Below are positions 1,873-56,861 of a DNA stretch of 64,000 nt, one piece after another. The stretch covers positions 115,382,001 to 115,446,000 of the forward strand of contig CM097884.1 of the NCBI GenBank assembly GCA_044892505.1. Direction: 5' to 3'. Within the stretch, counting starts at the first letter, position 1; each line of letters opens with the position of its first letter. Made by a program: the position numbers and the translations under genes. The stretch is from Schmidtea nova (taxonomy: Eukaryota). Under the pieces are notes generated by a model that did no database searches, was not told the origin of the DNA, and saw only the letters and a list, made by a program, of their open reading frames with translations.

Positions 1873-2022
1873 CGGAAGGAATATTCGAGAATTAAGTAAT
1901 TAATAAATTGGCTATTATTAAATCTTCTAAACATGGGATCATTACATTTGTTGAGGATACCTAAATAATAAATAATATTATAGATAATTTAAATAACTTA
2001 GGGAAAATCGATAGATTGATTG

Positions 2023-5000: not shown

Positions 5001-5900
5001 GACGTTCGTAAAGGATTCGTAGTGTCTCCAAAAATCTTCCCGAATCAAATTGGCAAAATTATTAAATTTGAAATTCTTTCCCACAAACTCTTGTAGCAAA
5101 ATCTTTCAAAAAGAATTCTAAATTCTTGGCAGCAAAATTTTTCAAAAGAGTTCTAAATTCTTGGCAGCAAAATCTTTCAAAAGGATTCTTTTCTTTTCGG
5201 AAAAATTTTCACAAATTTTCACCAGATTCTGAGTTAGCAAAATAAAAGAAATAAGAATTTTTCCACACCAATCTGAGATCTGCCATTTTGATGGCGGTAT
5301 ATATACCATCAAATTTTCTCTATCTCCGGTAGTGCAATAAAACAAATTGTTCTAGAATTTTCTCTTAATTTTTTCTAAATTAATTCTAATGATTTTCCGA
5401 AAATTAATTCCATATTTTTGTATAATAATTTTTTATAAACTCTAAATAATTTATTTTAATTAAAAATTTTTATGTTTGAATCGAAATTTGTTCGATTTGA
5501 TTTAATTTATGATTTTCGATCCATATTAATTCTTTCTATTGTTAAATGTGAAATTTTGTGATAAATTCACAATTTTCTTCTAAAATTTTGTTAATTTTTC
5601 TGCACTGAAGATTTTATGACAAAATTCTGTTCCTTATGGGCACTCTCCATGGGTTTTTTGCCTATTCTAGCTTCCAAACATTCTGCTTTTAATTTTTCTC
5701 GCGATTTCAGTGAAAATATTTATAAATTCGCAGTTAGCGCGCATTCTACCGGTTGATGTGTTTTGATTTATCTTCACCTTTTGGTGTTTTCCACTTAATT
5801 GTTGGATTTTCAATGGAAGCTAAGGTTAAAATGGAATCTTGCGCGTTCTCTACCTATGGGGTTATCGCTTTATTAAAACACATTGCGTTTTGGCCCAACA
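2023..5900 (-). repeat. 3' LTR (3,878 bp)
   Basis: Copy of 22250-26127; duplicated ORF-track entries (3776/24003, 4863/25090, 5142/25369) share offset 20227; one substitution noticed by eye (2657 C vs 22884 A). Confidence 0.92.
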
Positions 5901-6639
5901 TAAAATACTCGGGGGCCCGCAAAAATTGCGTCCCGCAATTTCTCAGAGGGGTTAAGAACCAAGACTAATCAAAGGTCAAAAGGTTGTACATTATACACGA
6001 GCTACTTGGTCGTGATCATGCCGTTCGCGACAATAAAAATAAAAAGTTTAAAAAAAAAATTAATAAAATTATACATATACACAAATATGAGTCTACATCG
6101 ACTCGTAAGCAAAAAAATTAAATGTAATATATGTGCCTACAGCGGCTAATCAAAGTTCAATATGAGTCTACAACGACTCGGATAAAAGTTTTACCAAGTT
6201 TATTAAGTTTGTTGAATTATCAAATTCATTATTGAATTGGTTGGATCTTCGACTGGAATAGTTTGAATGACTCGGTATTGATCAATGGTTTCTTGTCATC
6301 TTCTCTTCGGGATTTCAAATGATTCTTTATTACATTGTTGATTTGGGTTTAATTGGCCTGATTTCTGGGTTTCTTTGAGATGACAATAAATTGTTGTGAT
6401 CATGGTGATTAGAAAAACTTCTCGGTACGATTTCATTGTTGATTTTTGTGTTTCCAATAGAAGAAAATTGAATAATGACGATAAATAATTTTTGCTATTT
6501 ACACGGGCGTTACGATTTTTTAAGCAGGGTTATGATTCAATGATGATGAAATATTGTTCAAGATGAGAATACAAATAAATAGATAGATTAAATGAATGGA
6601 AGAAAATACATGAATTGTCAAAAAGGGGATCGAATCGTA

Positions 6640-7464
6640 TTATTGTTTATAGAAGTAATTCATCTGCACCGAGGTTGTAGCTGTCTCAGGATTAGGCTGT
6701 TCTGGAACTGGATCTTCAAATATTGATCTTAGAAAATTCTCTGACGGGTTGTTGTCTTCATGGGTGATTCGCTTGATGGTATTCAGCTGGATTTTTGCTT
6801 TCTCTAATTTCATTTTTTCTAATCCGATTGATACAACAATGCTAAGGATCATTATGACCGCGAAAAGACTGATGCCTTGTAGAACGACTGTGATGGCTGC
6901 TTCTCGGTCCCTGACGTCTTCGTTTGTTGATCCTTGTTTAGGGATAATCTCCTTTTGCTTTTCGGGTAATATCAATTGTTTCATAATTCTCTCGGTCTGA
7001 TGAAGTTGACTTTTCAGTTTTTGATTTAACTCTTCTGTAAAACTTGATCTTTCCTCATTAACTTCATCTTTATTATTTAGAGATTTTTCTATTAACTTGC
7101 TCAATTTCTTTAGTTCGGTCGTTAACTGTTTGAAGGATGATTGGTTTTCGAGCTGTTTCTTTAGTTGAAGATTGTTTCTTTTGGTTAAGGAGATTTGTAA
7201 TTGGATTAATTGTTGAGTTTCATTTCTCAATTGTTTAAGGATGGTGATTGAATCTTCTCTGAGTTTAGGACATTGTTGACATTGTAATTGTATCTGTTGA
7301 CACTCCTCATTTCTGGTGCTACAAATTCCTTGATAGCTTACGCAAATGCTATCGGATCTTCTAAATGGATGGCTTGCTTGACATTGACTCAATGCTTCTT
7401 CGCTTCGGCAGTTTGTAATTATAAATATCATGATGGTTGTCGTGATCTTCATTAGATTGCTCAT
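6640..7464 (-). CDS. 274-aa predicted type I membrane protein (env position)
   Basis: N-terminal hydrophobic leader, Cys cluster, long coiled coil, TM-like ITVVLQGISLFAVIMILSIVVSIGL, ~55-aa tail; last ORF before the 3' LTR. Confidence 0.75.
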   Translation of the reverse strand: MSNLMKITTTIMIFIITNCRSEEALSQCQASHPFRRSDSICVSYQGICSTRNEECQQIQLQCQQCPKLREDSITILKQLRNETQQLIQLQISLTKRNNLQLKKQLENQSSFKQLTTELKKLSKLIEKSLNNKDEVNEERSSFTEELNQKLKSQLHQTERIMKQLILPEKQKEIIPKQGSTNEDVRDREAAITVVLQGISLFAVIMILSIVVSIGLEKMKLEKAKIQLNTIKRITHEDNNPSENFLRSIFEDPVPEQPNPETATTSVQMNYFYKQ

Positions 7465-7559: not shown

Positions 7560-8135
7560 TTATTCTTTCCTCTCTTCATTTAGCTTTAACGGACTTTCTG
7601 GCTTCCAGTTTCCCATTCTTGCAATCTCGTCTGCTTCTTTTCGCCTTTGTTCTTTGAGGACGTAATTTTCTGCCGTTTTGATTTCTACAACTTTCTTTGC
7701 TTTGAATGTATCAAATTTTGCTTCTATGATTTCACTTTTCAACTTTATTATCTGTTTTTCTCTTTTGATAATCTTCTTCTGTTTGCTCTTCAATGATCGT
7801 TGTAATGACTCGATCTTAATTCTCCTTTTATTATCAGTGTTCTGTTCACTGCTTATTTCCCTTTTGAGTCTGTCAATCTCTTGCTTCTGTCTGTCGCAAT
7901 ATTTTTGAGTGAGACCATTTTGTTGGCGAAATAGATAATTTTCTCGCTTGATTATTTCCATCGTCTCGCACTCTTGCTCCATTTGTGCGATATATTTTCT
8001 ATCTTTGCTCACTACTTCCTTCAATTGGTCTATTTGGTCTTGATAATATTGCTCTGTTGCTCTTTTCCATTTTTTGAATCTTTCTTTTGATATCGTTTGT
8101 TGTTCTGGTTCTGATCTTTGCTTCAATAGTCTCAT
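7560..8135 (-). CDS. 191-aa basic coiled-coil orphan protein
   Basis: Intact ORF with the same cassette layout as its neighbours. Confidence 0.72.
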   Translation of the reverse strand: MRLLKQRSEPEQQTISKERFKKWKRATEQYYQDQIDQLKEVVSKDRKYIAQMEQECETMEIIKRENYLFRQQNGLTQKYCDRQKQEIDRLKREISSEQNTDNKRRIKIESLQRSLKSKQKKIIKREKQIIKLKSEIIEAKFDTFKAKKVVEIKTAENYVLKEQRRKEADEIARMGNWKPESPLKLNEERKE

Positions 8136-8397: not shown

Positions 8398-9945
8398 TTA
8401 TACAAACGTCTCTTCAATTTCTCCGAACCCTTCGTCTTCGATTTGAGGATTTTCTTGCTCCAAATGTACAGGTTGTATTGGTGTTGGATATAGTGGCCAT
8501 AGAATTATTGGAGGTTGATTTTGTAGGCTCTGAACTCTTTCTCGCAAAGTTCTTGAGATTTCCATCTCTTCATCTAGCAAATATGTCATATAATCGAGTT
8601 CTTCACACAGCTGTTCCTTTTCTATCTCGAGCTCTCTCGTATTTTCCATATTTTTCAACCTTTCAATTTCTCTTTCATAGTTTTGGCGATTTTCTTCCAA
8701 ACTTTGGATAGCCATTTCAATCTCATACTGCGATTGCTGGATCGCTTTCTCACATTCGGCCTTTGTTTCTTCTATCTGCCGTCGCTGGTGTTGAATGACA
8801 ATGTCTTTATGCGTATTTGTTCCTCGATATCCGTTGACTTCACGGTTTGCAATAGTCAATTCGATTGTCAATTCTTCAATACTTCTATCATCCATATTCT
8901 TCTGTTGATCATATTGCCTATTTTCAAATTCCAGATATTTGATACGAGCTTCTTGATTCCTGGTGAATTTCATTCTCCTTTGATTCCATTCAGTTTTTAA
9001 TTGAACTTGCCTTCTTAATTCTTTGTTTTCTATCTCTTGCTTTTCTGCATTTTCCCACAATTCTGCTTCATTTATTGACATCAGCTTCTTTGGGAATTCT
9101 CGTAGTTCGTCTCGAGTTCTTTTCCAGGTCTTTTTCCATGTTCTGGCTTGTTCTATTAGCCACTTTATTTGATGCTTTGTGCTTCTTTCTCTGAACTGTC
9201 CGCTCGTTTTCAACTGGAATATTTCTTTTCTGAGTTTCTCCGTTTCCTCATGACGTATGTCTGCATACCAATGACATTCCTCTTTCAGAGCCTCGATTTG
9301 AACGTCTCTCCGTCTTAGTAATTCTTCGTGTAGCATTTTTCTGTGTCGAGCCATTTCCAATAAATCTTGGTGTTCTTGTTTCCATTTCCTAGCCTCTGCT
9401 TTAACCTTTCTAATGATCTTTTCTTGTTCGCTTTCAGGCTGGATTTCTCTCGTTCTCGTTTTAGGTTTCTTTTGAGGTTGTCCTCTCAAGGCAAATGCTT
9501 CATCTCGACACTTTTCCCATTTCTTTTTCATGGCTTCATATCTATTTCTTTCACTTTCTAGTTGCTGCTGATAGAATCTTATGGAGTTGTCATACCTTGT
9601 TTCGGTATCTCTTTTATAGGTTTCGAGCTCATCTTTTCTCAATCTTGCTTGATTTTTCAACGGTACCGACTTTCGTTGTTCGTGCTCGAGTTTTCTCTCC
9701 ATTTCTCTGTACTCTCGTTTATAATTGTCTAGTTCAGCTTCGATATGTGCCTTGTCGTTTATTAGCTTTCGCAATTCCTCGTTTTCCTCTTTTATTTTGT
9801 TGATCTCTTGGGTTCGTTTTTCAATCAATTTAACGTTCTCTTGGATGGCTTCCATTCTTTGTTCATAGCTTCTCATTTGATTTAGTTGTTCTTGTCTTTT
9901 GGCCATCTCCTGATCTAGGATGTCTATCAATTGTTGTATATTCAT
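8398..9945 (-). CDS. 515-aa long coiled-coil orphan protein
   Basis: Uninterrupted E/K/R/Q-rich heptad-like ORF with a Pro-rich acidic tail. Confidence 0.8.
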   Translation of the reverse strand: MNIQQLIDILDQEMAKRQEQLNQMRSYEQRMEAIQENVKLIEKRTQEINKIKEENEELRKLINDKAHIEAELDNYKREYREMERKLEHEQRKSVPLKNQARLRKDELETYKRDTETRYDNSIRFYQQQLESERNRYEAMKKKWEKCRDEAFALRGQPQKKPKTRTREIQPESEQEKIIRKVKAEARKWKQEHQDLLEMARHRKMLHEELLRRRDVQIEALKEECHWYADIRHEETEKLRKEIFQLKTSGQFRERSTKHQIKWLIEQARTWKKTWKRTRDELREFPKKLMSINEAELWENAEKQEIENKELRRQVQLKTEWNQRRMKFTRNQEARIKYLEFENRQYDQQKNMDDRSIEELTIELTIANREVNGYRGTNTHKDIVIQHQRRQIEETKAECEKAIQQSQYEIEMAIQSLEENRQNYEREIERLKNMENTRELEIEKEQLCEELDYMTYLLDEEMEISRTLRERVQSLQNQPPIILWPLYPTPIQPVHLEQENPQIEDEGFGEIEETFV

Positions 9946-10079: not shown

Positions 10080-11249
10080 TTATTGGTCGGCATAACGGAA
10101 TCCCTTGATCCGTTTGTCGACCGGTTTCCTGCACATTGAGCACAATCTCAATTTATTGCTACAATTTCCACAAGCTAACAGATGTCCACACGGTAAATGA
10201 ATAACTTCTACTTTCTTTATCCAACAGATTGAACAGGGGTGTTTATTTAATATAACTTTCTTGATACATGATTCTGGGTTGACAACTTGGGATTTCCTGG
10301 TGAACTGTATTATAGCTTTGAAAAATTCTAGGGTTGATCCAAATGTTTCTCCATTTCTTCTCAATCTCTCTCTGATAACTTCTTTCACAAATATTTCGCT
10401 TTTGCCGGTACGTTCCATTGCCTTTTGAGTTCGTGGTTCGTCTAATATCTTATCTACTAATAATTCATTAACAGGCATCTCTGGGTTTTTATAATTGATC
10501 GGTTCTTCGTCTTCATATAATTCTTCTCCATATTTACAATATTCGTTGTGTTTCAGGTATTCTCCTTCTTCTTTTGGTAATTGATATTGTATTCCACACT
10601 CTGAACATTCAGCGGTTGATTCATTTATTGCATAAAAACCTTCTATTGCTAATCTGATACCCATCTTTTTATCTGCAAAGGTGTCAGTTCTCCCATTAAT
10701 CGTATATTTTGGATCAATTTCTATAAATCGTATCTTTGCTGGGCCTGTTGAAGTTATCGTTACTATTTTGGGTTTTTCTTCTTCATAATTGTTCATTGTT
10801 GCTGGTTTTCTTGGTTTTTCGCATGCCTTTAACACAAACTGGCACGTGGGTGAAAGTTTTCTATGTTCTGTTAGTGGATCATCGTTAATTCTCCAAGGTT
10901 CTATTTCAATTCTGCAAAATACACAAGTTACTTTATCGGGTTTCTCGATTGTCCCTGCAAAATACAAACCATCTTTGGCGAATTTTCTGTATTGCTTTTC
11001 ATAGAAATTGTCTTGTTGTAAAAAGGTTATATATCTTCGGTTCTCATTTTTCAACGTTTCATCGATAGTTTTGAATTTGCCATAATTTCTTTCCTTGGGA
11101 ACATTCGATATTGTTCGTGTAAATTGACAATAAATCAATTCTGAGGTAATTGGTTTTGACATCTTTTCTTTACCTCTTTTCATTAATTCGCATAAACTTT
11201 TGAATGATCTGTCATCTTCTCGTACTTTCACGATCTTCCTTTCAGTCAT
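10080..11249 (-). CDS. Inhibitor of apoptosis (BIR, degenerate BIR, UBA-like, RING)
   Basis: Canonical BIR DKVTCVFC...W...DDPLTEHRKLSPTCQFV; second BIR-like RTDTF...GFY...CSEC; C-terminal RING CSIC...LPCGHLLACGNC...CSMC. Confidence 0.93.
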   Translation of the reverse strand: MTERKIVKVREDDRSFKSLCELMKRGKEKMSKPITSELIYCQFTRTISNVPKERNYGKFKTIDETLKNENRRYITFLQQDNFYEKQYRKFAKDGLYFAGTIEKPDKVTCVFCRIEIEPWRINDDPLTEHRKLSPTCQFVLKACEKPRKPATMNNYEEEKPKIVTITSTGPAKIRFIEIDPKYTINGRTDTFADKKMGIRLAIEGFYAINESTAECSECGIQYQLPKEEGEYLKHNEYCKYGEELYEDEEPINYKNPEMPVNELLVDKILDEPRTQKAMERTGKSEIFVKEVIRERLRRNGETFGSTLEFFKAIIQFTRKSQVVNPESCIKKVILNKHPCSICWIKKVEVIHLPCGHLLACGNCSNKLRLCSMCRKPVDKRIKGFRYADQ

Positions 11250-11473
11250 TGTATCTACAATATTTTCTCCGTTATATTTTCACAATTTTTGTTTTCTATA
11301 TTTACAAAATTTTGATTTTTCTCATTTTTATATTTGATTTTTCGGTTTTTTCTCATTTTTATATTTCTTTTTGATTTTTATATTTTTTTGTGATTTTCTA
11401 ATTTTATTTTGTACATTATTATACAGATACTTTATTATAATACAGACATATTTACACTTTCTTTTCATCTTCA

Positions 11474-12877
11474 CTACGGCTTTCTTACTTCGATAATCAG
11501 ATACAGGATATTATTTACCAAATATAATGATTGTTCTGTGGTTAAATAATGTAATGCAATAAAACGTGGATTTCCTACAGCTACGTTGTAGTCTTCGATC
11601 GGCTTCCTATAAGCTGCTTCTACCTTCTTCAAGTTTGGTCTGAATACTTCCCGAACGTTGTTTTCCTTTGTTCCGATCATCATAGTTATATCGCAATCGT
11701 AGGGCCATTCTAACCAATCGTCATAATCTCCTTTACATATTTGAAAATATACAGATAAATGAGTTCCGGCTCCTAGTCCGTCTCCCGTTAGATATACTTT
11801 GAATCTAAGCTTGTAACCATGTTTCCAACTGTGACAAGGTGGACTTGTCCATACACGTTGACCTCCTTCTCTTGCTAGTCTCAATTTCTCTGTAAATTCT
11901 GTGATTTTCCAATAGTAGGGTGTGACGGGTAGTTCTTCCATTGTTGGCAATATGCTTTCCAATCTTTGTTGGATTGTTGATATTTCTGCTATTTTCTGGT
12001 CTAATAGTATCATTTTTTGGATCATTTGTTCTCTTATTCTTTCAAAATTTCCTCTCGTATCCAAAATCTCTTGTATCATGATTTTGTGAGATTTTATTTC
12101 TGTGTTGGCTTCTCCAATTACCAGTGCGGTTGCTCCAATAGCTTCCACAACGGTTCTCAAATGATTTACACTATTTTCATCTACATGCTTTTGTATTTCC
12201 TCTTTTGGTAATCTCACTTTGCAATTGAATAATTTTAGTGGACATGCAGTAGGCTTCTTTTCGCATATTTCCCAATGTTCTTTTAGCTTCACGTTTTCTG
12301 CCATTCCACATTGATTACAATTACCTTCATACTCGTCACATACTTGCCCTTCTTCTATATTCCAATGCTCATCTTTTAACACTATCCAAGCGTCTGTTTC
12401 GTTGCAAAACTCACATATTTCCTGTCGTTGTTCACACATTTCCTCATGACTGTCTTTGACTTTCTTCAACATTTCTTCTTCACACCACTTGCATTTGGCT
12501 TTCGTATCATCACAATTATAAAGGTGTTTGGCGATCCATTTTATTGGCCCACTCCATACACATGGTTTATTTGGACAGGTTGTTGCTGCGTTCATTATTT
12601 CCCGATTCATTGCGATATCTGGTCTGGTTTGGTCAAATTGGTCTATTATTGCTTCACCACATTCAGGACATAGCTTCTGTTTTGTTCGTATTATTTTCAT
12701 CACGCAATTAGTGCATATTCGACATCCACATTCAGTTTGTCTGGGTTCTATCAATAAATTTCTACATACTTTACATTTAAATCTTTCTTGAAATTCTGTT
12801 GGTTCTATCCGTTGTCTCTGTAGTATCTGATATAGTTCGATCAATTCCTCTTGTTTCTGCTGATTCTCGGTCTGCAT
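11474..12877 (-). CDS. TNF receptor-associated factor (TRAF2/3/5-like): RING, TRAF zinc fingers, coiled coil, MATH
   Basis: RING CKVC...ECGCRICTNC...CPEC; several Zn fingers; MATH signature GYKLRFKVYLTGDGLGAGTHLSVYFQICKGDYDDWLEWP. The ORF is open from 12937; probable ATG 12877. Confidence 0.95.
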   Translation of the reverse strand: MQTENQQKQEELIELYQILQRQRIEPTEFQERFKCKVCRNLLIEPRQTECGCRICTNCVMKIIRTKQKLCPECGEAIIDQFDQTRPDIAMNREIMNAATTCPNKPCVWSGPIKWIAKHLYNCDDTKAKCKWCEEEMLKKVKDSHEEMCEQRQEICEFCNETDAWIVLKDEHWNIEEGQVCDEYEGNCNQCGMAENVKLKEHWEICEKKPTACPLKLFNCKVRLPKEEIQKHVDENSVNHLRTVVEAIGATALVIGEANTEIKSHKIMIQEILDTRGNFERIREQMIQKMILLDQKIAEISTIQQRLESILPTMEELPVTPYYWKITEFTEKLRLAREGGQRVWTSPPCHSWKHGYKLRFKVYLTGDGLGAGTHLSVYFQICKGDYDDWLEWPYDCDITMMIGTKENNVREVFRPNLKKVEAAYRKPIEDYNVAVGNPRFIALHYLTTEQSLYLVNNILYLIIEVRKP

Positions 12878-12971
12878 TCTAAAATAATTTATAATTTTTT
12901 CGTTTTGCTTTTTATACCAAGTTTTATTCATATTCACATTTTTACATTTTATTTACACTGGTTTTAAATTT

Positions 12972-13607
12972 TTATAATAGTTCATCCCTTCCCGTCGAGT
13001 CAGGTTCTCGAACCGATTCTGGAAAATTGTCTAACCAGTTATACCATGCTCTGACTTCTTCTCGCGTCTCATTCAATCTTCTAATTTCGTTTGTTTGCCA
13101 CTCCGTATGTCTTGTTAACCATTCAATTCTCTGGTCCTTTTGGATTATCATTTGTTGTTGTTCTTCCATTTTAGCAAGATATAATAAATTTCTGTTTACA
13201 CTTTCTGTTAACAAAGCTTGTTCGTTTTTCCATTGTGCATAGGCTTGATTCAACATCCTGCTTATTAATTCACATTGCGTTTTCCATGATAACTCTTGCG
13301 TCATTGTCTGCTGATAAACCATCGGAGCTGATATTGATTGAGTCTGGCTATTTGTTGGTTGTTGATTTAATACGAATGTCGTTTGAATTGGGTTCATGGT
13401 TTCATCAAATAGTGGAATTTCGACTTGGTATATCAGGTTTCTATCATCAATTGTTGGATTTTGCGTTTCATTTTCGATTACTGGGGTTTGCAGTGACCCT
13501 TCTCTTTCTCGTATATTGGTATCTTCTGGAAACTGAGTTTGATTTGATGGTTCATTGAACGTTGGAACTGATGTTTGATAACTTTGATTCTCGTTGTTCG
13601 AATTCAT
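12972..13607 (-). CDS. ~211-aa orphan: N/Q/T-rich N-terminus plus C-terminal coiled coil
   Basis: Intact ORF co-oriented with the other cargo genes and with similar A-rich composition; no family recognised. Confidence 0.7.
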   Translation of the reverse strand: MNSNNENQSYQTSVPTFNEPSNQTQFPEDTNIREREGSLQTPVIENETQNPTIDDRNLIYQVEIPLFDETMNPIQTTFVLNQQPTNSQTQSISAPMVYQQTMTQELSWKTQCELISRMLNQAYAQWKNEQALLTESVNRNLLYLAKMEEQQQMIIQKDQRIEWLTRHTEWQTNEIRRLNETREEVRAWYNWLDNFPESVREPDSTGRDELL

Positions 13608-13758
13608 TTCTGTCAATAATTACACAATATTATCATTTGTTTTTCCCAGTTTTGAGGTATTCATTTTTTTGGATTTTTAAATTTTTATTATACTAATATA
13701 TTCTACTTTTATAATACAATATAATTTTATACACTATATACACTGTTCCTTCCACTGG

Positions 13759-16700
13759 TTACTCTGACAACTTGCGTTTCGACGACATCCTGATGTTCTC
13801 ATCTGGCTCGTCGGTTAATATGACTTTTATGTCTTCTTGGGTGACTTTTGAACCATTATGTGCTACTATCTGGCATACGAGTGTTCTAAACATTTCTTGT
13901 GATGCTTTCTTTTTGTAAACACAGATTTTATATTTTGTTTCTCGTTTTAATCCATTTATTCGGATTTCTCCTCCTTCTGCTCGTTGACATTTGACTGGAT
14001 TATCTCCTTTAATTTGCAATTTGCCTCTACTCCAACATGCTTCTTCATTATCTGCTCCTTGTATTAATATTTGTACTGGTTTTCTTTTGTCATCAGCTTC
14101 CGTTCCTTTCAATGCTGACAGCATCAATATCAGTAATATTATGTCTTTTATTCGAGTTTTATGTAGACATGCTGTTCGATTTTCATAATTTGAAGTTTCT
14201 TGCTTGGGTTCATCACTTTTGTTCCCAATTTCATCGTTATTGCTGTTTCCATCATCTTTCTCGTCTTTGTCATTGTTTCTGTTGATACTTTCATTGTCAT
14301 CTTTCTTTGTTTTGTTGTTATTATTCTCTTCATCTTCATCGTCAGGCTCATTGTGATCATCAGAACCACCCTCGGTTCCGATTAAAATGTCGTCCTCGAC
14401 ATTTATTAATTTTATTATTTCCTCATATCTTTTAGCTATTTCGTCTGCTTCGGCTTTTATATTTGCTCTCTTGGTTATTTCATCTTTGACGTTGTTCCAG
14501 CTTCGGTGAATTCTGCTTTCTTTTATATTTTCTTTCCATATGATAACTTGCTGATATAATTCCTGTCTTTTAGCTCCAATTCTTTCTTTTTCTTTTTTGT
14601 TGTTCGTAAACCTGAAATCAGGTCTTTGCAGCAATGCTTTAATCGTTTTATACATTTTCCATTTTCTTTTCATGGCTCTTTTCATTATCATATTTTCACC
14701 GTCTTCAAATCTGTCATTGACATTTATCACTCCTTCGTGCGTAACTGGATGTAACCATTTAATCATTTTTGCTGTTGTTTCGTCGGCATCTTTGTTCACT
14801 GCATTTACTAATGGATTTGGATCTGAACTGAGTACTTCAATATCTTCCTCTGTGGCATTTGACATAATATATTTGATTATTTGATGGTTATTTGCTTGCA
14901 CTGCATAAGATAACACCGTTTCATTTTTATCATCTCTTTCTTTAAAACTTGATCCGGTTCTCATCAGTTCTGCTATGAGTTTCTTGGATCCTCCTTTTTC
15001 AATTGCTACCATCAAGGGTGTTTGATCTTTCCAGTTTTTCGTGTTGGTATGTTGTTTACACTTTTCCATGAGTTTTATGATTTCAAACATTCTCTGTTCA
15101 TTCCCACTTTTTATTGCGTGGTATAATGGTATCTCATCTTTAAAACTGGCAATTGTAAGTAATATTGGTAATCTTTCTTTTATGGTATTCATCGCTTCTG
15201 TCGTTTCATTTCCTTTGGCATATTCCTCAACCATTAAGCTTACTCCTCCCAATATTTCAAATAGATTTTTACTTTTTGACCATTCTGGCATAATTTCTTT
15301 GGTAATCTCAATGATCAATTCCATCTTTTTGCGGTGCTCCATTTTTACATCGTCAACTACCTTAGGTTGTTCAGATATTGTTGTTGGCTGATTTACTTTT
15401 CTGCTCGTAGTTAATATACGATGTAGCCAATCGTCATTTTTATTCTCTCGAAACATATATACTTGTCCTTTTCTGGTTGTTTCTGGATTTGATTGTTCTA
15501 TCATTGTTTCTCTTGTGCAATTCTCTTCAATTTGGTGTTTCAACTTCATCGTATTCAAATCAATTACAGATCCTTTTAACAGTTTTGGTATTAAGTCTGT
15601 TCCAATAATGCATGAGGTACCCAGTTGTTTTATTACTGTCAAATAAGTTGATATTTTTATTTTCCTGTATTCGATGTTCGTCCATATTTTTCCAACGATA
15701 TTGACAGATTCTTTGCTGCATGTTATTACGTCTACTGATGTTTTCTCGATGCATAACCGTAACAATTCTGGTATCATATCGATATCTATTGCTGATATAT
15801 TTGCGCCAGTATCTATCATCGCGTCTACTTTTACGCCATTAACTTCGATGTTAATTGTAAGTGTTGGTCCAGCTGGAGTTTTCATCATTGCAATTATCGT
15901 TGTTTCGGGATTATCTTCACCTCTCGCTTTTCTGGTCAACTCGCTTCCTGCAATTTTATCAATAGTTAATTTATTACTTGTTTCGATTTGTATCGGGGCT
16001 ACACCGATTTCTATATCATCATCCAGCGATTCTCCATCATATTTCAAGTGAAATGGTAAATTGAATGGTAATCTCTCTTTTATCTCTTTGATCTTTGTTG
16101 TTAATGATACATTCATCTTTATTTCTTCTAGACTCGGAAACTGAATTTTCAATCTGCACATCTGTGGATCATCGTTTGTTTGTTCCAGTTGTTTCCATTT
16201 TCTCATGATGTCATCAAATTGTGTTGAATACCAAGGGCATAAACGTCTGCATTTCTCGATTTCTCTCACTATCAATCTCATGTTTGATATATTTGCACTA
16301 TTTTTTATAACCCATTTTAGTAATTCAGTTGTTGTTTCATATTGTTTTCCTGCACTCTTGCTTAGGTTACTGATTAATCGTTCGGTCTTTGACGTTTCCG
16401 TTTGTCTTGATCTCTCGAGCTTCGCTGATTTCCTCTTTTCCTCCGACTTCTGATTCATTTTCGTCATTTCTTCTATGGTAATGGTTAACAATCTTTGTGC
16501 CACTTCTTCTAATTTGATTGTCGTAGATTCATTCCATTTCTCGTCCATGCTACATGTGTCATCATCGCTTCTTCTTTCTCTTCTTTTTCGGTTATATTTC
16601 TCCACAAACTTCTTCTTTTCTTCTCCCTCCATATCTTTTACTGAAAATTCATATACATTTCCCTTTCTTTCAATTTCAACGTCTGGTAATTCGGCTATCA

Positions 16701-16869
16701 TTTCATTTACTTTTTCTTCGATATTCTGTTGTAGTTGCATTTTCATTGTTATTACTTCTTTTTCTTCTTCCTGCAAATTATCTTCTACATTTGAACTGGT
16801 TATTTTCTGCTCTTCTTTTAATAAATTATCTTCTGAGTTTGTACTGGTAACTTTCTGATTTTCCTCCAT
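13759..16869 (-). CDS. ~1,036-aa polyprotein: charged N-terminus, ubiquitin-like segment, retropepsin (DTG), ankyrin repeats, acidic linker, internal hydrophobic signal-like stretch
   Basis: VNGVKVDAMIDTGANISAI (DTG at 15805-15813) and IIGTDL flap/C-terminal motif; ankyrin-like PLYHAIKSGN, QTPLMVAIEKG, ETVLSYAVQANN; IILLILMLSAL near 14100-14146. The ORF track starts at TTG 16881; the first ATG is 16869. Confidence 0.8.
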   Translation of the reverse strand: MEENQKVTSTNSEDNLLKEEQKITSSNVEDNLQEEEKEVITMKMQLQQNIEEKVNEMIAELPDVEIERKGNVYEFSVKDMEGEEKKKFVEKYNRKRRERRSDDDTCSMDEKWNESTTIKLEEVAQRLLTITIEEMTKMNQKSEEKRKSAKLERSRQTETSKTERLISNLSKSAGKQYETTTELLKWVIKNSANISNMRLIVREIEKCRRLCPWYSTQFDDIMRKWKQLEQTNDDPQMCRLKIQFPSLEEIKMNVSLTTKIKEIKERLPFNLPFHLKYDGESLDDDIEIGVAPIQIETSNKLTIDKIAGSELTRKARGEDNPETTIIAMMKTPAGPTLTINIEVNGVKVDAMIDTGANISAIDIDMIPELLRLCIEKTSVDVITCSKESVNIVGKIWTNIEYRKIKISTYLTVIKQLGTSCIIGTDLIPKLLKGSVIDLNTMKLKHQIEENCTRETMIEQSNPETTRKGQVYMFRENKNDDWLHRILTTSRKVNQPTTISEQPKVVDDVKMEHRKKMELIIEITKEIMPEWSKSKNLFEILGGVSLMVEEYAKGNETTEAMNTIKERLPILLTIASFKDEIPLYHAIKSGNEQRMFEIIKLMEKCKQHTNTKNWKDQTPLMVAIEKGGSKKLIAELMRTGSSFKERDDKNETVLSYAVQANNHQIIKYIMSNATEEDIEVLSSDPNPLVNAVNKDADETTAKMIKWLHPVTHEGVINVNDRFEDGENMIMKRAMKRKWKMYKTIKALLQRPDFRFTNNKKEKERIGAKRQELYQQVIIWKENIKESRIHRSWNNVKDEITKRANIKAEADEIAKRYEEIIKLINVEDDILIGTEGGSDDHNEPDDEDEENNNNKTKKDDNESINRNNDKDEKDDGNSNNDEIGNKSDEPKQETSNYENRTACLHKTRIKDIILLILMLSALKGTEADDKRKPVQILIQGADNEEACWSRGKLQIKGDNPVKCQRAEGGEIRINGLKRETKYKICVYKKKASQEMFRTLVCQIVAHNGSKVTQEDIKVILTDEPDENIRMSSKRKLSE

Positions 16870-17637
16870 TTCTTTCTGCAAATCGGCTACAAACTTTCTA
16901 ATATTGTGGATTTTACTTCTTTATTTATCAGCTTTATTTCTTTTTAATTTCCTTTCGTCGTTTTTAATAGATTTGACTCTTTATCTTTCGACTTTACGAA
17001 CTTGGTTGGTTTGGTAATATTGTCAATTTGTGTTTAATATCGATTGCTGATCTTTCTTTTATCTTCAATTGGATCTTCTTTGATTTATTTTCTTTTACTT
17101 CTTTCCTTTTCAATTAGACTTCTTTTCTTCTTTTCTTCTATATATACCTCTTCAATAACTGATTGATTCGACTATCTCTTGGCTTGGCTTTGATCTGTTG
17201 GACAATCTAAATAAAAATATCGCTTCTTCATCGACGCCATTTACCCCCCTTTTATTCTGAGCTCAGATTTTAAATTATCTATATCTCGTAATAATTATCT
17301 ATATGGTCGTATCAGTTATCTATACCCTGATAATAATAATAATAATAGTAACAATAATAATAATATTACTAATACTATAATAACAGTATGATCATACTCA
17401 TCTCGGCATTTGAGGAAAAAATGTCTTGTTCGTTATCTATTCATGGCCATTATTTTATTTCCTAAGTATTTCTCGATGTCTTTTATCTGCTCTTATTAAC
17501 GGTTTGTATTACTACACCTTAAGTATTCGCGTTCAATGTTTTTCTCTGTCATAACAAAATTTTTTCTGCGCAGTTTTATTTAATTCTATCTCTCAAACGT
17601 TTTTCCTAAATTTCTCAACAATATCCATAAACATTGG

Positions 17638-18132
17638 ACTCTCAAAGTCTCTCACATACATGAACTCTCAAAGTTTCTCAATTATCTGGACTCTCAAAGT
17701 CTCTCATACATGAACTCTCAAAGTTTCTCAATTATCTGGACTCTCAAAGTCTCTCATACATGAACTCTCAAAGTTTCTCAATTATCTGGACTCTCAAAGT
17801 CTCTCAATTATCTGGACTCTCAAAGTCTCTCCCAGAGCGCTCAATTATCTGGACTCTCAAAGTCTCTAAATTACCTGGACTCTCAAAGTCTCTCAATTAT
17901 CTGGACTCTCAAAGTCTCTCAATTATCTGGACTCTCAAAGTCTCTCAATTATCTGGACTCTCAAAGTCTCTCAATTATCTGGACTCTCAAAGTCTCTCAC
18001 ATACATGAACTCTCAAAGTTTCTCAATTATCTGGACTCTCAAAGTCTCTCACATACATGAACTCTCAAAGTTTCTCAATTATCTGGACTCTCAAAGTCTC
18101 TCACATACATGAACTCTCAAAGTTTCTCAATT
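17638..18132. repeat. Tandem array of about 19 units of ~26 bp (ACTCTCAAAGTYTCTCA...)
   Basis: Units end in either ATTATCTGG or (CA)TACATGA and alternate A/B over part of the array; there are no unique spacers. Confidence 0.95.
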
Positions 18133-19192
18133 TTTCTCGGCCGTCTTCGATTATTCTCTTTATACTATTTAATCACTCGCTTTCCTATTCTCGATTTTTA
18201 ATTTTTCACAAATAAATTCGCTGTTACTGACTGGTTTTCTCAAATTGTTCTACTACTTCTCAATTACGAATCAATTCCCTAACTACCATGGTAGAATCTT
18301 TTCTTATTATACTATCATCTACTATAATCATCGAAATTCACTTTTTACTCTTTCGACTTTCTAAAATCTGCATCTGATTTTCTCAGCAACTTTCTCTTTA
18401 CTCATGTTACTGCCTTCTACCTCAGTGTACCAATCATGCCTTGGCAAACTGGTGTATAAGACGAACATTACGGGTTTAGCCCTTTCACCTAATTCAAAAT
18501 CGTAAAATAATCGCGTCAACTTGTTTCGCAATTTGTGATGATCAGTCACAAACGAAATTTATCGACATTTGCGATGGTTAACCTATTCTACTTTTTTCTC
18601 TTCAGGATAATCAAGTTTTTCCCATTTATTACAAACTATCTTTTGTCACAAAAAAAATTGGCGTACTATCTTTTGATAGCTCTATTAAAATTTGGCGTAC
18701 TATCTTTTGATAGCTCAGTTATGAATTTGTGGATTATTTTCTCGTTTCTACTCAGACACTCATTTCTCACTGTATTTCGGAAGGTTTCCTTATAAAATCA
18801 ACTCCTATAACGCTACTTATTGCTCGTCCTAATACATACATATTCATATATATAATGATCAGTATAATAATGATAATCAATATAATAATGGTAATAAGGA
18901 AGATTTATAGTAATAAAATTCGGATCATTATAATACTGATGATGAGGAAGATTTATAATAATAATAATAATAAAGGAAATTCAAAAAGAAAAGAAAAGTA
19001 ACTTTGTCACAAATTCCCATTTTCCTAATGTTTGATTTTTCGGCATTAGCCGTTACTTGTTATGTTTTTTACACGACTCTCAATCATTAATTACCTAGTG
19101 TTCTGTGTTTATTTAATTTTTACGACGATTTGGAGTACTGGATGATCGACGATGTTCAACACGACTAAAACATTTATTTCGAACGACATTCT

Positions 19193-19675
19193 TCACGAAC
19201 AAAATACCATGATTTTGTCATCAATTGTCTGTTTGCAGATTACGCATCTCTTTATTTCTCTAGAACACGGCTGGCAATAACACAAATGTCCGCATGGCAT
19301 GAATAAAATGTTCGCTTCTTTTTGTCGACAAATATAACATCTTTCGAACGAATCGATCTGTTGATTTATCGATTTCTCTAGCTTGTCCATGATTTTATCG
19401 ATTTTACCAATCCATTCTTGTATTTTCAGATTAAAATTCGGATTATTCAGTCGCAATCGTTGTAATTCGTAAATTGTTTCTAACGAAATATCGTTTGTTG
19501 TTCCTACAACTCCTGCAATCACTATTAGATTCTCAGGTTGTGGTCTAGGATTCAACAATAATTCATCTTTTATTCCATTTACTCGTTCGAGTTTCTCGCT
19601 CAACACCTGCAATGGGTCATCTTTAAAATCGAAAAACAACTCGATTCGTAGTAAAATATGCTCAATCGATTCCAT
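19193..19675 (-). CDS. 160-aa protein with C-terminal C3HC4 RING finger (IAP/MYLIP-like E3 ligase type)
   Basis: CYIC...PCGHLCYCQPC...CVIC motif near the C-terminus; intact ORF with TTTTAG directly before the ATG. Confidence 0.85.
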   Translation of the reverse strand: MESIEHILLRIELFFDFKDDPLQVLSEKLERVNGIKDELLLNPRPQPENLIVIAGVVGTTNDISLETIYELQRLRLNNPNFNLKIQEWIGKIDKIMDKLEKSINQQIDSFERCYICRQKEANILFMPCGHLCYCQPCSREIKRCVICKQTIDDKIMVFCS

Positions 19676-22221: not shown

Positions 22222-22239
22222 ATCCCGGCTGAGCCCCCA
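22222..22239 (-). promoter_or_regulatory. Primer-binding site, tRNA-Pro type
   Basis: Minus strand reads TGGGGGCTCAGCCGGGAT, 16/18 identical to the MLV tRNA-Pro PBS TGGGGGCTCGTCCGGGAT; 10 nt inside the 5' LTR. Confidence 0.88.
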
Positions 22240-22249: not shown

Positions 22250-25200
22250 TGGTGGGTTGTTGACCGTCAATATGACCTTGACGTTTCTATGGCTCTCATC
22301 AACAACCCAACACATAAAATGTTGAAATTACCACCTTGTTACCCGTCACTATGTAACGTTGGTACTGTAACAAGTGGGTGGGTATTCGCAATCAGTGAGC
22401 GTCGTCAATACGAAACTATGATTGACCGAATATCTCCTGGGTCCAAGGGCTACCGATAGAAGGTTTCTTGCCCATTTTGTCCCTTCTTCGACGATTTATC
22501 TATAAGCTTTCAATAAAAATTTTCATCGGAAATTCAACATAAACACTCTGCATAACTATAAATTCATTAATACATCCAAATAAATTATTCCGAGCATCAA
22601 AACACTAATATAACCCTATATTTTACCAATATTGCATTTTATGATAATTAATACATAAAATTTTATATTTTTATAGAAAAATTTTGATCTGCAATTGAAA
22701 TTTAAGAAAAATTTTTAATTATTACCGTAATTTAATCCAGTTTAGAAATAATAAAAATAAAATTTCCGTTTGTTTAAAATTGCTAATTTAATCAAAAGGA
22801 CAAATTTACTCAATTTAAAAGTTATATTAATTTTAAAGGTAATTTTATGAATTTTTCGCTAAATTGATAAATTAACTATTTCTATAGTGCAGATCTACAA
22901 GAAATGGACCTTTCCAGAAACTACGAAGCCAGAGGAAAATTCTCCCACCCCAAACGGGTCAATCCGATTAGAACTCGAGCTCCTATGAAGCAAAATAGCC
23001 CGCTCTACCAACCAAGTAAAATTTTGATTATTTCAGAATTATAATTTATTTTGATCAATTTTAGAAAATTTCTTGAAGAGAATATGTGGGAAATGGCCCT
23101 TCAAGTACTACAAACCAAAAAAATTCTTGCCGGGGACTCTTATCCCTCAAACTGAATTTTTATTAATAAATCTTTAAAAAAAAAAAATCTTTTCGTTTTT
23201 ACTCTTTTTCGTTTGAGTTTTTATTATTTTTATTAAAAATAAACTGTAATGTAAATGGCCTATTTGGCTGGGTATATACAATTTTATATGGTAGGTTTGA
23301 ATAATAGAAATTTTTGTATGGTTTTTCTGGATGTATGTTGCCGACTAACATAACTGTGTAGAATTTTCAGTATTGTTTGCTTGTGTGTATATAACTATTG
23401 AATGCTAATAAATGATACGGTGTATGTGTGTATATTGTATTTTAAGTATACGTTGCTTGTGTATTAGCATGGGAAATGTTATTGAATGAAATGGATGTAA
23501 TTTTTTGCAAATAGGGATGCATTATGATTTTTGAGATATCGTGGGGGTATTTATAATATATATATATATAAATTATATAAAATATTTTTTTCAAAATTAA
23601 AATAATAATAATAATTTTTATATTAAAATAATAATAATAATTTTTATAATACTTTTATAAATTTTAGATTTATAATTTTACGAAAATAATACCATAATAA
23701 AATTTCCAATTTTTATATTATAAATTTTTATAATACTTTTTATAAATTTTACATTTATAATTTTGTAAAAATATAATAATAAACTTTCTAATTTTTACAA
23801 TACACATTTTCCTAATACTTTTTATAAATTTTAGATTTATAATTTTATGAAAATAATATAATAATAAAATTTCTAATTTTTATAATACATATTTTTATAA
23901 TACTTTTTATAAAAATTTTTTAATTTATAATTTTATGAAAGTAATATAATAATAAAATTTCAATCTATAAATTTTATGGGGTTTAATATAAATTTTGATT
24001 TTTCAAATTCTCGGGAATTTTATGAAATGATAAAATCTTTTATATATTAATAATATTAGGAACCAAATTTGGTTTACAATTTTTTCCATATAAAATCTTT
24101 TCAACATAATAAAAAGCAAATTTTTACTTCTGATCCAAATGAAATGATAATAAATTTTTATCCATAAGTTCCGAAATCTAAATAAGCATTTAATCAAAAA
24201 AAAATTTTTATAGGCTAAATAAAGATAAAATAAAAATAAGTTATAAATTTTTCAACGAATGTTTTTAATATCAAGTAAAGTAAATTTCGGTTTTGTTGAG
24301 CATGAATTTCCCAATCAAAGTGTACGCGAATTTTTCGGGACACTTCACTTAGAAATTTCAGGCTCTCGAAAAACAAGATTCACAGGAAAACTTATTTAGA
24401 CCATAATGAGCTTTAATTCAGATTAAATCAATACTTGTTTCACAATTTATTTCACTTCATGAGCATTATTCTAGACTTGAGCATTATTTCGAACAATTTT
24501 CTTTTCATCATCAGCATCCATTTTTCTTGCATTTTCTTATGAGATGAACGTTGTTGAGAGTGTGAAGGTGAAGGTGAGTACGAGTCGATTTTTTAATCAA
24601 TAATATTTCCTATTTTAGATTTCAAGACATGAGGTAGAAATTATTATGTTGTATTACGAAATTGCTTATGTAGATAATAAAAATATGATACTCTATTATA
24701 ATACAAATCATTAGTATAACAAAACCTTGCTCTTGGCCAAACCGCGGTTCCCCAGTTGGGATGACGCGAATTTGGATGTATGAGCCTCACCTTAAAGTGG
24801 AAATATGGGCTGGCCGATTACCAATCAGACAACGATCCACCCAGGCTACTAACAGATCCGCACAACTAAGGCTGGACGGATCGTCAGAAGATATGGGAGA
24901 TAAAAAAAAAATTTTTATTCATTTTTCTAATTTTATTTAATTTGCTACTTGAAATAAAAACTTTTTGAGTGTATTGGGAATTTGTAACAAACAAAAGTTT
25001 TTCAAGAAAAATTGAGAATAAACTAATCATTAAATATTTTAATAACATTATAATAAAAATACATGATCAATAAAATAATAAATAACATATTAAATAAAGG
25101 AGAGGAATGGGATGATCGTCAGGCATGATAGACGACCATTCCAATCCCCAATGAGAATAACCAAAATCAAACAAATCCTTACGTTCCAAGCTCGAATTTT

Positions 25201-26127
25201 CTCAGATTTGTAACAATACGGCTTCCAGACGTTCGTAAAGGATTCGTAGTGTCTCCAAAAATCTTCCCGAATCAAATTGGCAAAATTATTAAATTTGAAA
25301 TTCTTTCCCACAAACTCTTGTAGCAAAATCTTTCAAAAAGAATTCTAAATTCTTGGCAGCAAAATTTTTCAAAAGAGTTCTAAATTCTTGGCAGCAAAAT
25401 CTTTCAAAAGGATTCTTTTCTTTTCGGAAAAATTTTCACAAATTTTCACCAGATTCTGAGTTAGCAAAATAAAAGAAATAAGAATTTTTCCACACCAATC
25501 TGAGATCTGCCATTTTGATGGCGGTATATATACCATCAAATTTTCTCTATCTCCGGTAGTGCAATAAAACAAATTGTTCTAGAATTTTCTCTTAATTTTT
25601 TCTAAATTAATTCTAATGATTTTCCGAAAATTAATTCCATATTTTTGTATAATAATTTTTTATAAACTCTAAATAATTTATTTTAATTAAAAATTTTTAT
25701 GTTTGAATCGAAATTTGTTCGATTTGATTTAATTTATGATTTTCGATCCATATTAATTCTTTCTATTGTTAAATGTGAAATTTTGTGATAAATTCACAAT
25801 TTTCTTCTAAAATTTTGTTAATTTTTCTGCACTGAAGATTTTATGACAAAATTCTGTTCCTTATGGGCACTCTCCATGGGTTTTTTGCCTATTCTAGCTT
25901 CCAAACATTCTGCTTTTAATTTTTCTCGCGATTTCAGTGAAAATATTTATAAATTCGCAGTTAGCGCGCATTCTACCGGTTGATGTGTTTTGATTTATCT
26001 TCACCTTTTGGTGTTTTCCACTTAATTGTTGGATTTTCAATGGAAGCTAAGGTTAAAATGGAATCTTGCGCGTTCTCTACCTATGGGGTTATCGCTTTAT
26101 TAAAACACATTGCGTTTTGGCCCAACA
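22250..26127 (-). repeat. 5' LTR (3,878 bp)
   Basis: Near-identical to 2023-5900; followed on the minus strand by a 10-nt spacer and the PBS; imperfect terminal inverted repeat TGTTGGG/TGGTGGG. Confidence 0.92.
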
Positions 26128-26131
26128 ATTG

Positions 26132-29285: not shown

Positions 29286-29799
29286 ATGGTTAAATATATT
29301 ATTTTCTTTTAAAATGTCAATTAATATTCCTTATTATTATTTAGTTACCTCTCAGTTTAATAAAAGCTTGTATCAATAAACCAATTGTAAGTAATTTTAA
29401 AAACTGGAACACAAATTCATCACTATTCCTTAGTTAGTTGAATTGAAAAACAATGAAACATATAATGGACATTTGGCCATTGTTGACAGTTTTATGAATA
29501 TTCAGTTGAAAAAAGCCATTTGTACATCGAAAGATGGTGACAAATTTTGGAGCATACCAGAAGTTTATATTAAAGGAAATACAATCAAATTTATTCGAAT
29601 ACCGCCAGATGTTATTGATAATGTCAATGAAGAGGTGAAACTAAAAGCACCACCACGCACAACTTCTGGCTCATCTCAGTTCCGTGGAACTGGTAGAGGT
29701 GGTTATGCAGGTAACCAACAGGGCAGAGGAGGAGGTGCGCGTGGCCGTGGATTCACCAATCGTGGTGGTCGTGGCGGTCGAGGTGGCCGTGGCATTTAA
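29286..29799 (+). CDS. LSM4: U6 snRNA-associated Sm-like protein LSm4 (3 exons: 29286-29288, 29345-29386, 29434-29799)
   Basis: Spliced product [29 protein letters not shown]...DGDKFW...YIKGNTIKFIRIP plus an RGG tail matches LSm4; GT-AG introns of 56 and 47 nt. Confidence 0.96.
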
Positions 29800-56650: not shown

Positions 56651-56861
56651 TTATTATTATTATTATCAATAATTCTCATAATGACTATAGATCAAAATTT
56701 TTTTTTTTTATAAACAATAACACAATATTTCGGCACAGCCTTTATCAAGTGTGTATTTCACATTTGATAATACACACTTGATAAAGGCTGTGCCGAAATA
56801 TTGTGTTATTGTTTATAAAAAAAAAATTTTTTTTGATCTATAGTCATTATGAGAATTATTG

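Follow-up and report, generated by a model that had tools for sequence, protein, structure and literature searches.

A fresh, high-copy Burro-type LTR element without pol carries conserved TRAF and IAP genes in the planarian Schmidtea nova

Why a complete TRAF gene and an IAP gene should lie side by side in a planarian genome, and what keeps them intact there, is the question raised by a 64,000-nucleotide stretch of Schmidtea nova DNA (the window; contig CM097884.1, positions 115,382,001 to 115,446,000). An initial annotation of this stretch had proposed that an LTR element carries intact, intronless TRAF, IAP and RING genes which, together with ankyrin repeats, form a coherent module against apoptosis or innate signalling. 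The structural half of this proposal is borne out, as the minus strand at 2023-26127 holds a 24.1-kb LTR element that hosts all three genes, each as a single open frame. The features are as follows, in window coordinates; family A is an autonomous element family of the same genome.

2019..2022, unstranded: target-site duplication ATTG, left flank
2023..5900, minus strand: 3' LTR, 3878 nt, TG...CA, 99.97% identical to 22250-26127
6310..6440, minus strand: truncated last accessory ORF with a signal-peptide-like start
6640..7464, minus strand: 274-aa accessory ORF with a hydrophobic N-terminus plus a single hydrophobic segment, no Pfam family
7560..8135, minus strand: 191-aa coiled-coil accessory ORF, sub-cutoff matches only
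8398..9945, minus strand: 515-aa coiled-coil accessory ORF
10080..11249, minus strand: IAP, 389 aa, with BIR, degenerate BIR-like domain, UBA-like helices (weak) and RING
about 10104-10247, minus strand: C-terminal RING of the IAP (Pfam E 2e-10)
about 10290-10478, minus strand: UBA-like helices, weak
about 10524-10703, minus strand: degenerate BIR-like domain, below all thresholds
about 10824-11069, minus strand: canonical BIR (BIR1), aa 80-139 (Pfam E 3.5e-16)
11474..12931, minus strand: full-length TRAF, 485 aa, with RING, zinc fingers, coiled coil and MATH
12972..13607, minus strand: 211-aa accessory ORF, family unassigned
13759..16869, minus strand: 1036-aa shortened polyprotein with weak SUMO-like domain, aspartic protease and ankyrin repeats (Pfam)
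17599..18177, unstranded: 26-bp tandem repeat in the leader, common to family A
19193..19675, minus strand: 160-aa upstream ORF with C-terminal IAP-type RING, no BIR
22222..22239, minus strand: primer-binding-site-like motif (PBS), set 10 nt inward of the 5' LTR, with the same sequence in family A
22250..26127, minus strand: 5' LTR, 3878 nt, pair of 2023-5900
26128..26131, unstranded: target-site duplication ATTG, right flank

The two LTRs differ at one nucleotide in 3878 (position 2657; 99.97% identity) and a 4-bp target-site duplication stands on either side of the element, which is a very young, fresh insertion. The primer-binding-site-like motif is presumably of the tRNA-Pro type, and a search for tRNA genes within the window found none. 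Neither the ORFs nor a Pfam search revealed gag, env, RT, RNase H or integrase in the 24.1-kb element, a lack that the initial annotation missed, and a BCL2-like domain was likewise without a Pfam match. The window copy is short of about 580 nt near 6311 that other copies have. An ordinary host gene cluster or an assembly artefact might be considered, given that single-exon TRAFs do exist among the host genes (six loci with frames of 448-486 aa), and the intronless state of the TRAF proves nothing about its origin for the same reason. Against such a reading, however, stand the LTRs, the target-site duplication, nearly identical copies scattered over each of the three large contigs, and the presence of the element in four public runs from one study (90-99% identity), so that we assign it next to no probability. 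Each of the 88 TRAF matches that were scored is intact, lies at a dispersed site and has 99-100% identity, and LTR-PBS junctions number 1831 genome-wide.

The closest known relatives are the giant gypsy elements Burro1/GYPSM1 of Schmidtea mediterranea, which have multi-kb LTRs, tandem repeats and thousands of copies, and for Burro elements MATH_TRAF_C, BIR, ankyrin, Smc and SUMO-like domains have been listed (PMC6431247, section 7). The window element has the multi-kb TG...CA LTRs, PBS and target-site duplication of this group and a matching cargo of TRAF/MATH, BIR, ankyrin, coiled-coil and SUMO-like domains (the last at E 0.022), but the giant gag-env-pol polyprotein is absent from the window family and present in autonomous families A and B of the same genome. 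It is a derivative of the Burro/GYPSM1 elements and not a full member, a kinship measured as homology to family A, with S. mediterranea Burro1 compared by description. The 4706-aa frame of family A encodes gag, MATH, a fusion glycoprotein, protease, RT, RNase H, integrase and ankyrins, and this order (gag-MATH-env-PR-RT-RH-IN-ANK) is that of Burro1/GYPSM1 as described. Burro1/GYPSM1 encode a MATH domain within the polyprotein, whereas the window has a complete TRAF as a gene of its own, downstream of a polyprotein that is shortened; its family is also devoid of gag, env, RT, RNase H and integrase, and a BIR-RING gene lies in the 3' cassette. In a Burro-like element of Dugesia tigrina, too, an accessory ORF separate from the polyprotein encodes a TRAF domain (PMC6431247); there the domain, of unstated completeness, lies upstream in an autonomous element, whereas here the TRAF is downstream, full-length and beside an IAP. 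The earlier view that a TRAF within an LTR element was undescribed is thus largely wrong. TRAF, BIR, ankyrin and SUMO-like cargo was already known in Burro elements, and what may be new is the probably helper-dependent, high-copy form. Neither such a form nor an element-borne full TRAF was found in the literature, the nearest sources being PMC6431247 and the accessible part of PMC13465017; Jurka 2007, Grohme 2018 and Dev Cell 2026 may describe one.

The 1036-aa ORF aligns with the family A polyprotein in four in-frame blocks (43-60% identical) and retains the protease DTG at aa 353 in 39/39 rows together with the weak SUMO-like domain, and Pfam finds in it no gag, MATH, env, RT, RNase H or integrase. 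Its ankyrin repeats (Ank_2 E 4e-10, aa 582-672; about 14854-15126) sit behind the aspartic protease, and ankyrins hold the equal position, the polyprotein tail, in families A and B. The ankyrins noted initially are present, but as an inherited polyprotein remnant and not as a separate gene. Viral IkB-like ankyrins are exemplified by polydnavirus vankyrins, free-standing ankyrin-only genes closest to IkB. The proposed IkB mimicry finds no support: the window ankyrins are fused behind a protease, no IkB is found among the 60 of 83 PDB matches listed, the best of which are generic, and the accessible part of PMC13563047 leaves it unclear which planarian proteins correspond to NF-kB. A word-index protein search with the whole ORF returned one generic ankyrin protein. 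The separate RING protein was read correctly; its 160-aa ORF has counterparts in family A (73%) and family B (23-25%), and in none of the three families does it contain a BIR. The 211-aa ORF is 37% identical over 108 aa to the family B ORF preceding TRAF, and the 515-aa coiled-coil ORF is 29% identical to the one right after it. The 274-aa product is likely a membrane protein.

How does an element without replication genes reach such numbers? LARD- and TRIM-like elements, which have intact LTRs and a PBS, lack pol and likely move with the help of a partner that shares their cis sequences, offer a precedent, and such derivatives are mostly non-coding; the window element, by contrast, keeps eight ORFs, and all five tested are under purifying selection. 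In a non-random sample of LTR-PBS junctions (the first 60 on one contig, with 10 kb read at each), 46 belonged to the pol-less family of the window, a recently amplified non-autonomous family by this reading, and 30 of these carried TRAF and IAP; eight belonged to family A with the same LTR end and PBS, and gag-pol together with TRAF-IAP occurred in none. Five further copies selected by their TRAF are colinear over the cargo region without pol there, two of them traced from LTR to LTR, and the LTR pairs of the window and two other full copies are 99.8-99.97% identical. Family A has an LTR end and PBS identical to those of the window, LTRs about 86% and a leader 85-90% identical, and a young LTR pair of its own (99.7%). 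As an autonomous partner with matching cis sequences, it is likely the helper that copies the pol-less family in trans. In family B, TRAF is followed directly by a coiled-coil ORF with no BIR at both undisrupted loci (2/2), and a BIR profile built from three sequences, which also misses degenerate BIRs such as the second one of the window IAP, found none among 2703 frames taken from 28 loci of families A and B.

Two shared deletions, found in 10 and 6 copies, have removed TRAF and IAP together from 16 of the 46 pol-less copies, and none of the 46 has lost either gene singly. The deletion copies are ~3% diverged among themselves, about as much as from full copies, and six of the ten first-deletion copies have another gene, of 1.6 kb, instead. 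Because deletion copies have still spread and diverged like full ones, spread does not require the cargo in cis.

The TRAF lies directly upstream of the IAP, whose ORF starts 224 nt past the TRAF stop, and is complete from RING to MATH. It has the RING, TRAF zinc fingers, coiled coil and MATH (Pfam E 5e-23) of its family, an AlphaFold2 model with pLDDT 92 from 43 aligned sequences, and TRAF1/2/3/5 as top Foldseek matches. In a careful tree (LG+G4; 13/38 rows omitted, including long branches and the family A MATH), it forms with family B TRAF and the unnamed entry P0003 a single clade (support 100/100) separate from six host TRAFs; compositional bias was flagged for 3/4 element rows, and long-branch or composition effects may play a part. 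Quicker trees gave weaker support for the element clade, at SH-aLRT 93 for MATH (74 rows) and 89 for the full-length protein (38 rows), where a long-branch outsider fell within the clade. L199, one entry of the 74-row tree, is a host gene. These trees place the window TRAF in an old element-specific clade, which answers, for the TRAF, the phylogenetic check suggested earlier. A recent retrocopy of a host TRAF was rejected, identity being 25-30% to host TRAFs versus 35-41% to element TRAFs. Word-index protein searches with the TRAF or the IAP found no relatives.

The IAP is assigned to its family by a BIR of the form C-x2-C-x16-H-x6-C and a C-terminal RING, and neither the zinc ligands of this BIR nor the RING varies among element copies. 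The BIR-BIR-UBA-RING order first proposed stands for one canonical BIR and the RING. The second BIR is sub-threshold at every cut-off tried, yet retains R-x-x-T-F and G-F-Y-like motifs as well as C215, C218, H234 and C238 at shortened spacing (conserved in 29-30/30 rows; omega 0.32), and by these motifs it is a degenerate BIR-like domain. A UBA has weak support: the protein aligns below threshold with the UBA region of cIAP1 (3t6p), a helical bundle is the only confident part of an otherwise poor single-sequence model (pLDDT 34), and language-model leads are <0.9. Omega of the UBA-like part is 0.54 (p 0.09). Possible host sources of the BIR are an exon that we take to be Bruce-like and a single-copy BIR-plus-helical exon; tblastn over 30 kb around the latter gave no match to the window IAP, and no donor was identified among the host BIR exons found.

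Both genes are under purifying selection, with spectrum-corrected omega of 0.23 for TRAF (69 N, 102 S; p 2e-21) and 0.36 for IAP (94 N, 92 S; p 4e-12), far from the neutral value that would have undermined the original proposal. Omega is 0.15 in the IAP RING, 0.26 in BIR1 and 0.35 in the TRAF coiled coil. It is lower for variants common to several copies, and it stays <1 for shared variants among copies whose silent sites differ by up to 5-8%, which points to repeated replication rounds under constraint. TRAF is intact in 20/30 sampled copies and IAP in 25/29. One might argue that the signal dates back to a handful of source copies, or to an autonomous parent that escaped notice, and that the majority of copies are passive passengers without present effect. 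One third of the TRAF copies are indeed broken, and an autonomous IAP-bearing family could have been missed when 150 of 1295 BIR and 150 of 2419 MATH candidates were scored; the constraint on shared variants and the lack of gag-pol beside TRAF-IAP at all 60 junctions (10 kb read) nevertheless make this very unlikely. Since the element encodes no replication proteins, the cargo is not kept by a direct role in the element's own copying, and purifying selection on TRAF and IAP in such an element suggests that cells, hosts or helpers are the units on which it acts. All five ORFs tested, some without known function, are under similar selection, which therefore does not single out a role in apoptosis.

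In vertebrates, cIAP1/2 and TRAF2 form a complex of a TRAF with a coiled coil and a BIR-(UBA)-RING IAP. The window likewise encodes a coiled-coil TRAF and a BIR-RING IAP, but compared with that complex (PDB 3m0a) its IAP has one canonical BIR and no Pfam match to a CARD. A similar complex, joined by IkB-like ankyrins and the RING protein into one toolkit that blocks TNF/NF-kB signalling, would fit the adjacency of the genes, their joint loss in 16/16 deletion copies, the selected coiled coil and the match of BIR1 to cIAP1/2 BIR1 (E 3-5e-8). Yet DIAP1, survivin and livin match BIR1 equally well or better, the joint losses come down to two events across adjacent genes, family B pairs its TRAF with a BIR-less coiled-coil ORF, the ankyrins are a polyprotein tail with generic best matches, and planarian RHD factors are highly divergent according to the accessible part of PMC13563047. 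A Rel-homology search of the genome found no match, but neither did its controls, and it carries no weight here. We regard this toolkit as quite unlikely, and an obligate TRAF-IAP module as doubtful. TRAF and IAP are adjacent cargo genes whose products may work in parallel, a putative physical complex between them being possible.

Alternatively, the cargo may serve the element, its E3 ligases and adaptors protecting or trafficking helper particles or countering silencing, with selection acting through copies co-expressed with the helper. The coiled-coil (515-aa ORF, omega 0.24), protease and ankyrin parts are under equally strong selection, cargo has been swapped in the first-deletion sublineage, and the upstream RING lacks a BIR throughout; the invariance of the BIR zinc ligands and RING tells against it, and we consider this option unlikely.

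The explanation that we favour, and hold to be probable, is a fresh, high-copy, pol-less Burro-type element, probably copied by a helper, whose conserved TRAF and IAP likely aid apoptosis resistance. Observed are its anatomy, the family resembling a helper, the copy numbers, the purifying selection and a TRAF clade specific to elements. The shared cis sequences suggest that LTR-driven RNA of the window element would be packaged and reverse-transcribed by family A proteins. Cargo ORFs may be expressed from subgenomic RNAs, because an acceptor-like YAG lies immediately 5' of the start codon in 7/8 ORFs versus 16% of 377 other ATGs (p 2e-5). In the accessible part of PMC13465017, Burro1 B-IAP reportedly shields stem cells against apoptosis and binds and ubiquitinates caspases or their antagonists; by analogy the BIR-RING protein may do the same, the two being likened by description and the window IAP differing in its non-autonomous carrier. 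The TRAF may act on stress or survival signalling, and knock-down of a planarian host TRAF leads to more cell death (PMC7586133, accessible part). Better survival of cargo-expressing cells or animals would then keep the cargo under selection. On this explanation the TRAF arrived with a family-B-like 3' cassette, inside which the IAP is located. A bolder and rather doubtful version would make this satellite without gag, env or pol the genome's main carrier of BIR-RING IAP and full TRAF (about 900 copies), which borrows the particles of BIR-less helpers and pays with a stem-cell survival cassette, possibly a TRAF-IAP complex, while deletion sublineages cheat.

On the favoured explanation, the host-transposon mutualism reported for Burro1 would extend to a non-autonomous family, for which the genome provides natural controls in the form of full copies, two deletion sublineages and one cargo-swapped sublineage. 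Counts behind the planarian TRAF expansion reported in the accessible part of PMC6109357 may be inflated by element-borne TRAFs. Element-borne BIR-RING genes likewise bear on the reported loss of RING-containing IAPs in flatworms, an account that leaves planarians unmentioned in its accessible part (PMC13159474).

Self-comparison of the window revealed a direct repeat of 3878 nt (2023-5900 and 22250-26127) with one mismatch and TG...CA ends, flanked on both outer sides by ATTG, which forms the LTR pair of a 24.1-kb element. A PBS-like motif, presumably of the tRNA-Pro type, lies 10 nt inside the 5' LTR. The stretch beside the 3' LTR (5901-5950, minus strand) is without a purine tract and is instead GC-rich and partly self-complementary, and the last 300 nt are shared with family A, an autonomous relative and likely helper. 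The ORFs listed as intact in the initial annotation do each form one open frame, all on the minus strand, and no gag, env, RT, RNase H or integrase was found in the interior.

ORFs in the interior of the window element, in 5' to 3' order
ORF 1, minus strand, 160-aa RING protein
ORF 2, minus strand, 1036 aa with a weak SUMO-like domain, a protease and ankyrins
ORF 3, minus strand, 211 aa
ORF 4, minus strand, TRAF of 485 aa
ORF 5, minus strand, IAP of 389 aa
ORFs 6-7, minus strand, two coiled-coil ORFs
ORF 8, minus strand, probable membrane protein
Last ORF, minus strand, truncated

Other features of the window
29494-29799, plus strand, probable host exon, LSM domain with a Gly-rich tail
43606-47075, plus strand, separate conventional gypsy element, fragmented, with RT, RNase H and integrase pieces
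48850-49242, minus strand, probable host exon, weak Strabismus match
56648-56880, inverted repeat with 64-nt arms, related to 49780-49847
63182-63613, minus strand, probable host exon, TPR repeats

Pfam, PDB, AlphaFold2 and Foldseek all show the TRAF to be complete, as had been claimed, and its named near relatives are from Dendrocoelum and Dugesia. The BIR-BIR-UBA-RING architecture proposed for the IAP holds for the RING and one canonical BIR; neither the UBA nor the second BIR reaches threshold, although the four putative zinc ligands of this BIR are retained in 29-30 of 30 rows. An element-borne TRAF domain is not new, since Burro/GYPSM1 bears MATH_TRAF_C, BIR, ankyrin, Smc, BCL2-like and SUMO-like domains and an accessory ORF of a Dugesia element encodes a TRAF domain (PMC6431247). 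The general idea of anti-apoptotic cargo fits the data and is largely published already: Burro has been suggested to interfere with host apoptosis and ubiquitination (PMC6431247), and B-IAP, the Burro1 IAP of Schmidtea mediterranea, is reported to protect stem cells (PMC13465017). A pol-less Burro family bearing TRAF and IAP was not described in the literature searched, which excluded key primary papers and supplements.

Searching the 1.25-Gb genome with the window TRAF gave 3018 candidates, and all 88 that were scored, a set picked by score, are 99-100% identical and intact; a BIR family search gave 1295 candidates, with the window IAP at 28 of the best 30 loci. There are 1831 exact matches to the 38-nt LTR-end/PBS pattern genome-wide (control, 0). 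As a sample independent of coding sequence, 10 kb of interior was examined at the first 60 listed junctions, which lie on one contig within its first 31 Mb: 46 belong to the pol-less family of the window element, 8 to family A, and 6 are interrupted or unrelated. Both TRAF and IAP are present in 30 of the 46 pol-less copies (one IAP being only 68% covered) and neither in 16, so that scaling this sample to 1831 would place the pair in roughly 900 copies (about 700-1150). Tandem and head-to-head arrangements of the element were seen at L035-L038 and L043-L046.

A MATH search of the genome uncovered two autonomous families. Family A encodes a 4706-aa frame (gag-MATH-fusion glycoprotein-PR-RT-RH-IN-ankyrin); its LTR end and PBS are exactly those of the window element, its LTRs are 86% identical, and the leader, tandem repeat and RING ORF are common to both. 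The 1036-aa ORF consists of four in-frame blocks of the family A polyprotein at only 43-60% identity, and therefore goes back to an older relative. Family B (G000:C1:148.65-148.68 Mb, L085-L088; 128 exact LTR-PBS junctions) brings a gag-env-pol of its own. Its 3' end bears several small accessory ORFs and a cassette in which an ORF resembling the 211-aa one is followed by a full-length TRAF (35%) and then, without an intervening IAP, by a coiled-coil ORF (29%). No BIR was detected in 28 family A and B loci by a search insensitive to degenerate BIRs. Given its A-type cis sequences, shortened polyprotein and B-type cassette, the window family looks like a chimera to which an IAP was added.

Two of the analyses proposed in the initial annotation, dN/dS across copies and a TRAF phylogeny against host paralogs, were run. 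Averaged over pairs of copies, pN/pS is 0.13 (TRAF) and 0.20 (IAP); with a mutation spectrum from four-fold sites, omega is 0.23 and 0.36, or 0.15 and 0.26 for variants present in at least two copies, and the remaining three ORFs tested are likewise constrained (0.24-0.54). The associated p-values are optimistic because copies are related and may recombine. Intact frames were found in 20/30 copies for TRAF, 25/29 for IAP, 26/38 for the 1036-aa ORF, 30/43 for the coiled coil and 29/30 for the 211-aa ORF. In a full-length TRAF tree of 25 rows, which omitted 13 of 38, the window TRAF, the family B TRAF and an unnamed row (P0003) form a 100/100 clade with six host TRAFs outside, other trees giving weaker support. 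Since element TRAFs stand apart in this clade, the window TRAF is, judging from sequence, old element cargo. Its lack of introns says nothing of the capture route, because host TRAFs can be single-exon, and a search for a host donor of the IAP found none. A large host MATH/TRAF cluster with several single-exon genes lies at G000:C2:405-455 Mb (L051-L080, L194-L197), and a single-copy BIR exon (L107) is inside it.

It had been proposed that TRAF, IAP, the separate RING protein and ankyrins form a coherent module, a TNF/NF-kB toolkit. The results argue against a tight module and do not support this toolkit; a TRAF-IAP complex is at most possible. Copies without TRAF and IAP carry one of two shared deletions, the first covering 10100-13176 (10 copies) and the second beginning at 13989 (6 copies, with its end at 10084 in 4), yet divergence within each group is about 3%, as among full copies, and these copies therefore kept spreading. 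Moreover, 6 of the 10 copies with the first deletion (L140, L143, L145, L162, L163, L164) carry a different gene in a 1.6-kb insert. In both translated cases (L140:3894-5345, plus strand, and L163) the product has 481 aa, begins with a signal-peptide-like sequence, is rich in cysteine in the middle, contains a single hydrophobic segment and ends in what looks like a PDZ-type tail; a Pfam search with it gave nothing above cut-off. The window BIR shows no greater likeness to the BIR1 of cIAP than to DIAP1, survivin or livin. The ankyrins occupy the position that they have in autonomous polyproteins and match generic ankyrins, and according to PMC13563047 the RHD factors of S. mediterranea, seven in number, are highly divergent and include no clear NF-kB.

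A YAG lies within 6 nt of the start in 7 of the 8 ORFs, compared with 16% of 377 other ATGs, and is retained in 40/40, 40/40, 30/30 and 43/43 copies for four of them. TRAF, which starts 40 nt past the 211-aa ORF (intervening window 12932-12971, minus strand), is the only one without this acceptor-like motif (0/30); the family B TRAF has one. To the observed anatomy, abundance, shared cis sequences and constraint of the window family may be added a tentative account of its mode of life. Family A would mobilise it in trans, and the position of the YAGs suggests that the cargo ORFs may be expressed from subgenomic RNAs. By analogy with B-IAP, the BIR-RING protein might act against caspases, and the TRAF could have a survival role like that suggested by host TRAF knock-downs (PMC7586133). 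The window TRAF and IAP are genuine cargo that looks functional, carried by an element of a known kind. What is new is their setting, a dominant non-autonomous family in which selection maintains a full TRAF and a BIR-RING IAP, while no BIR turned up in the helper loci examined.
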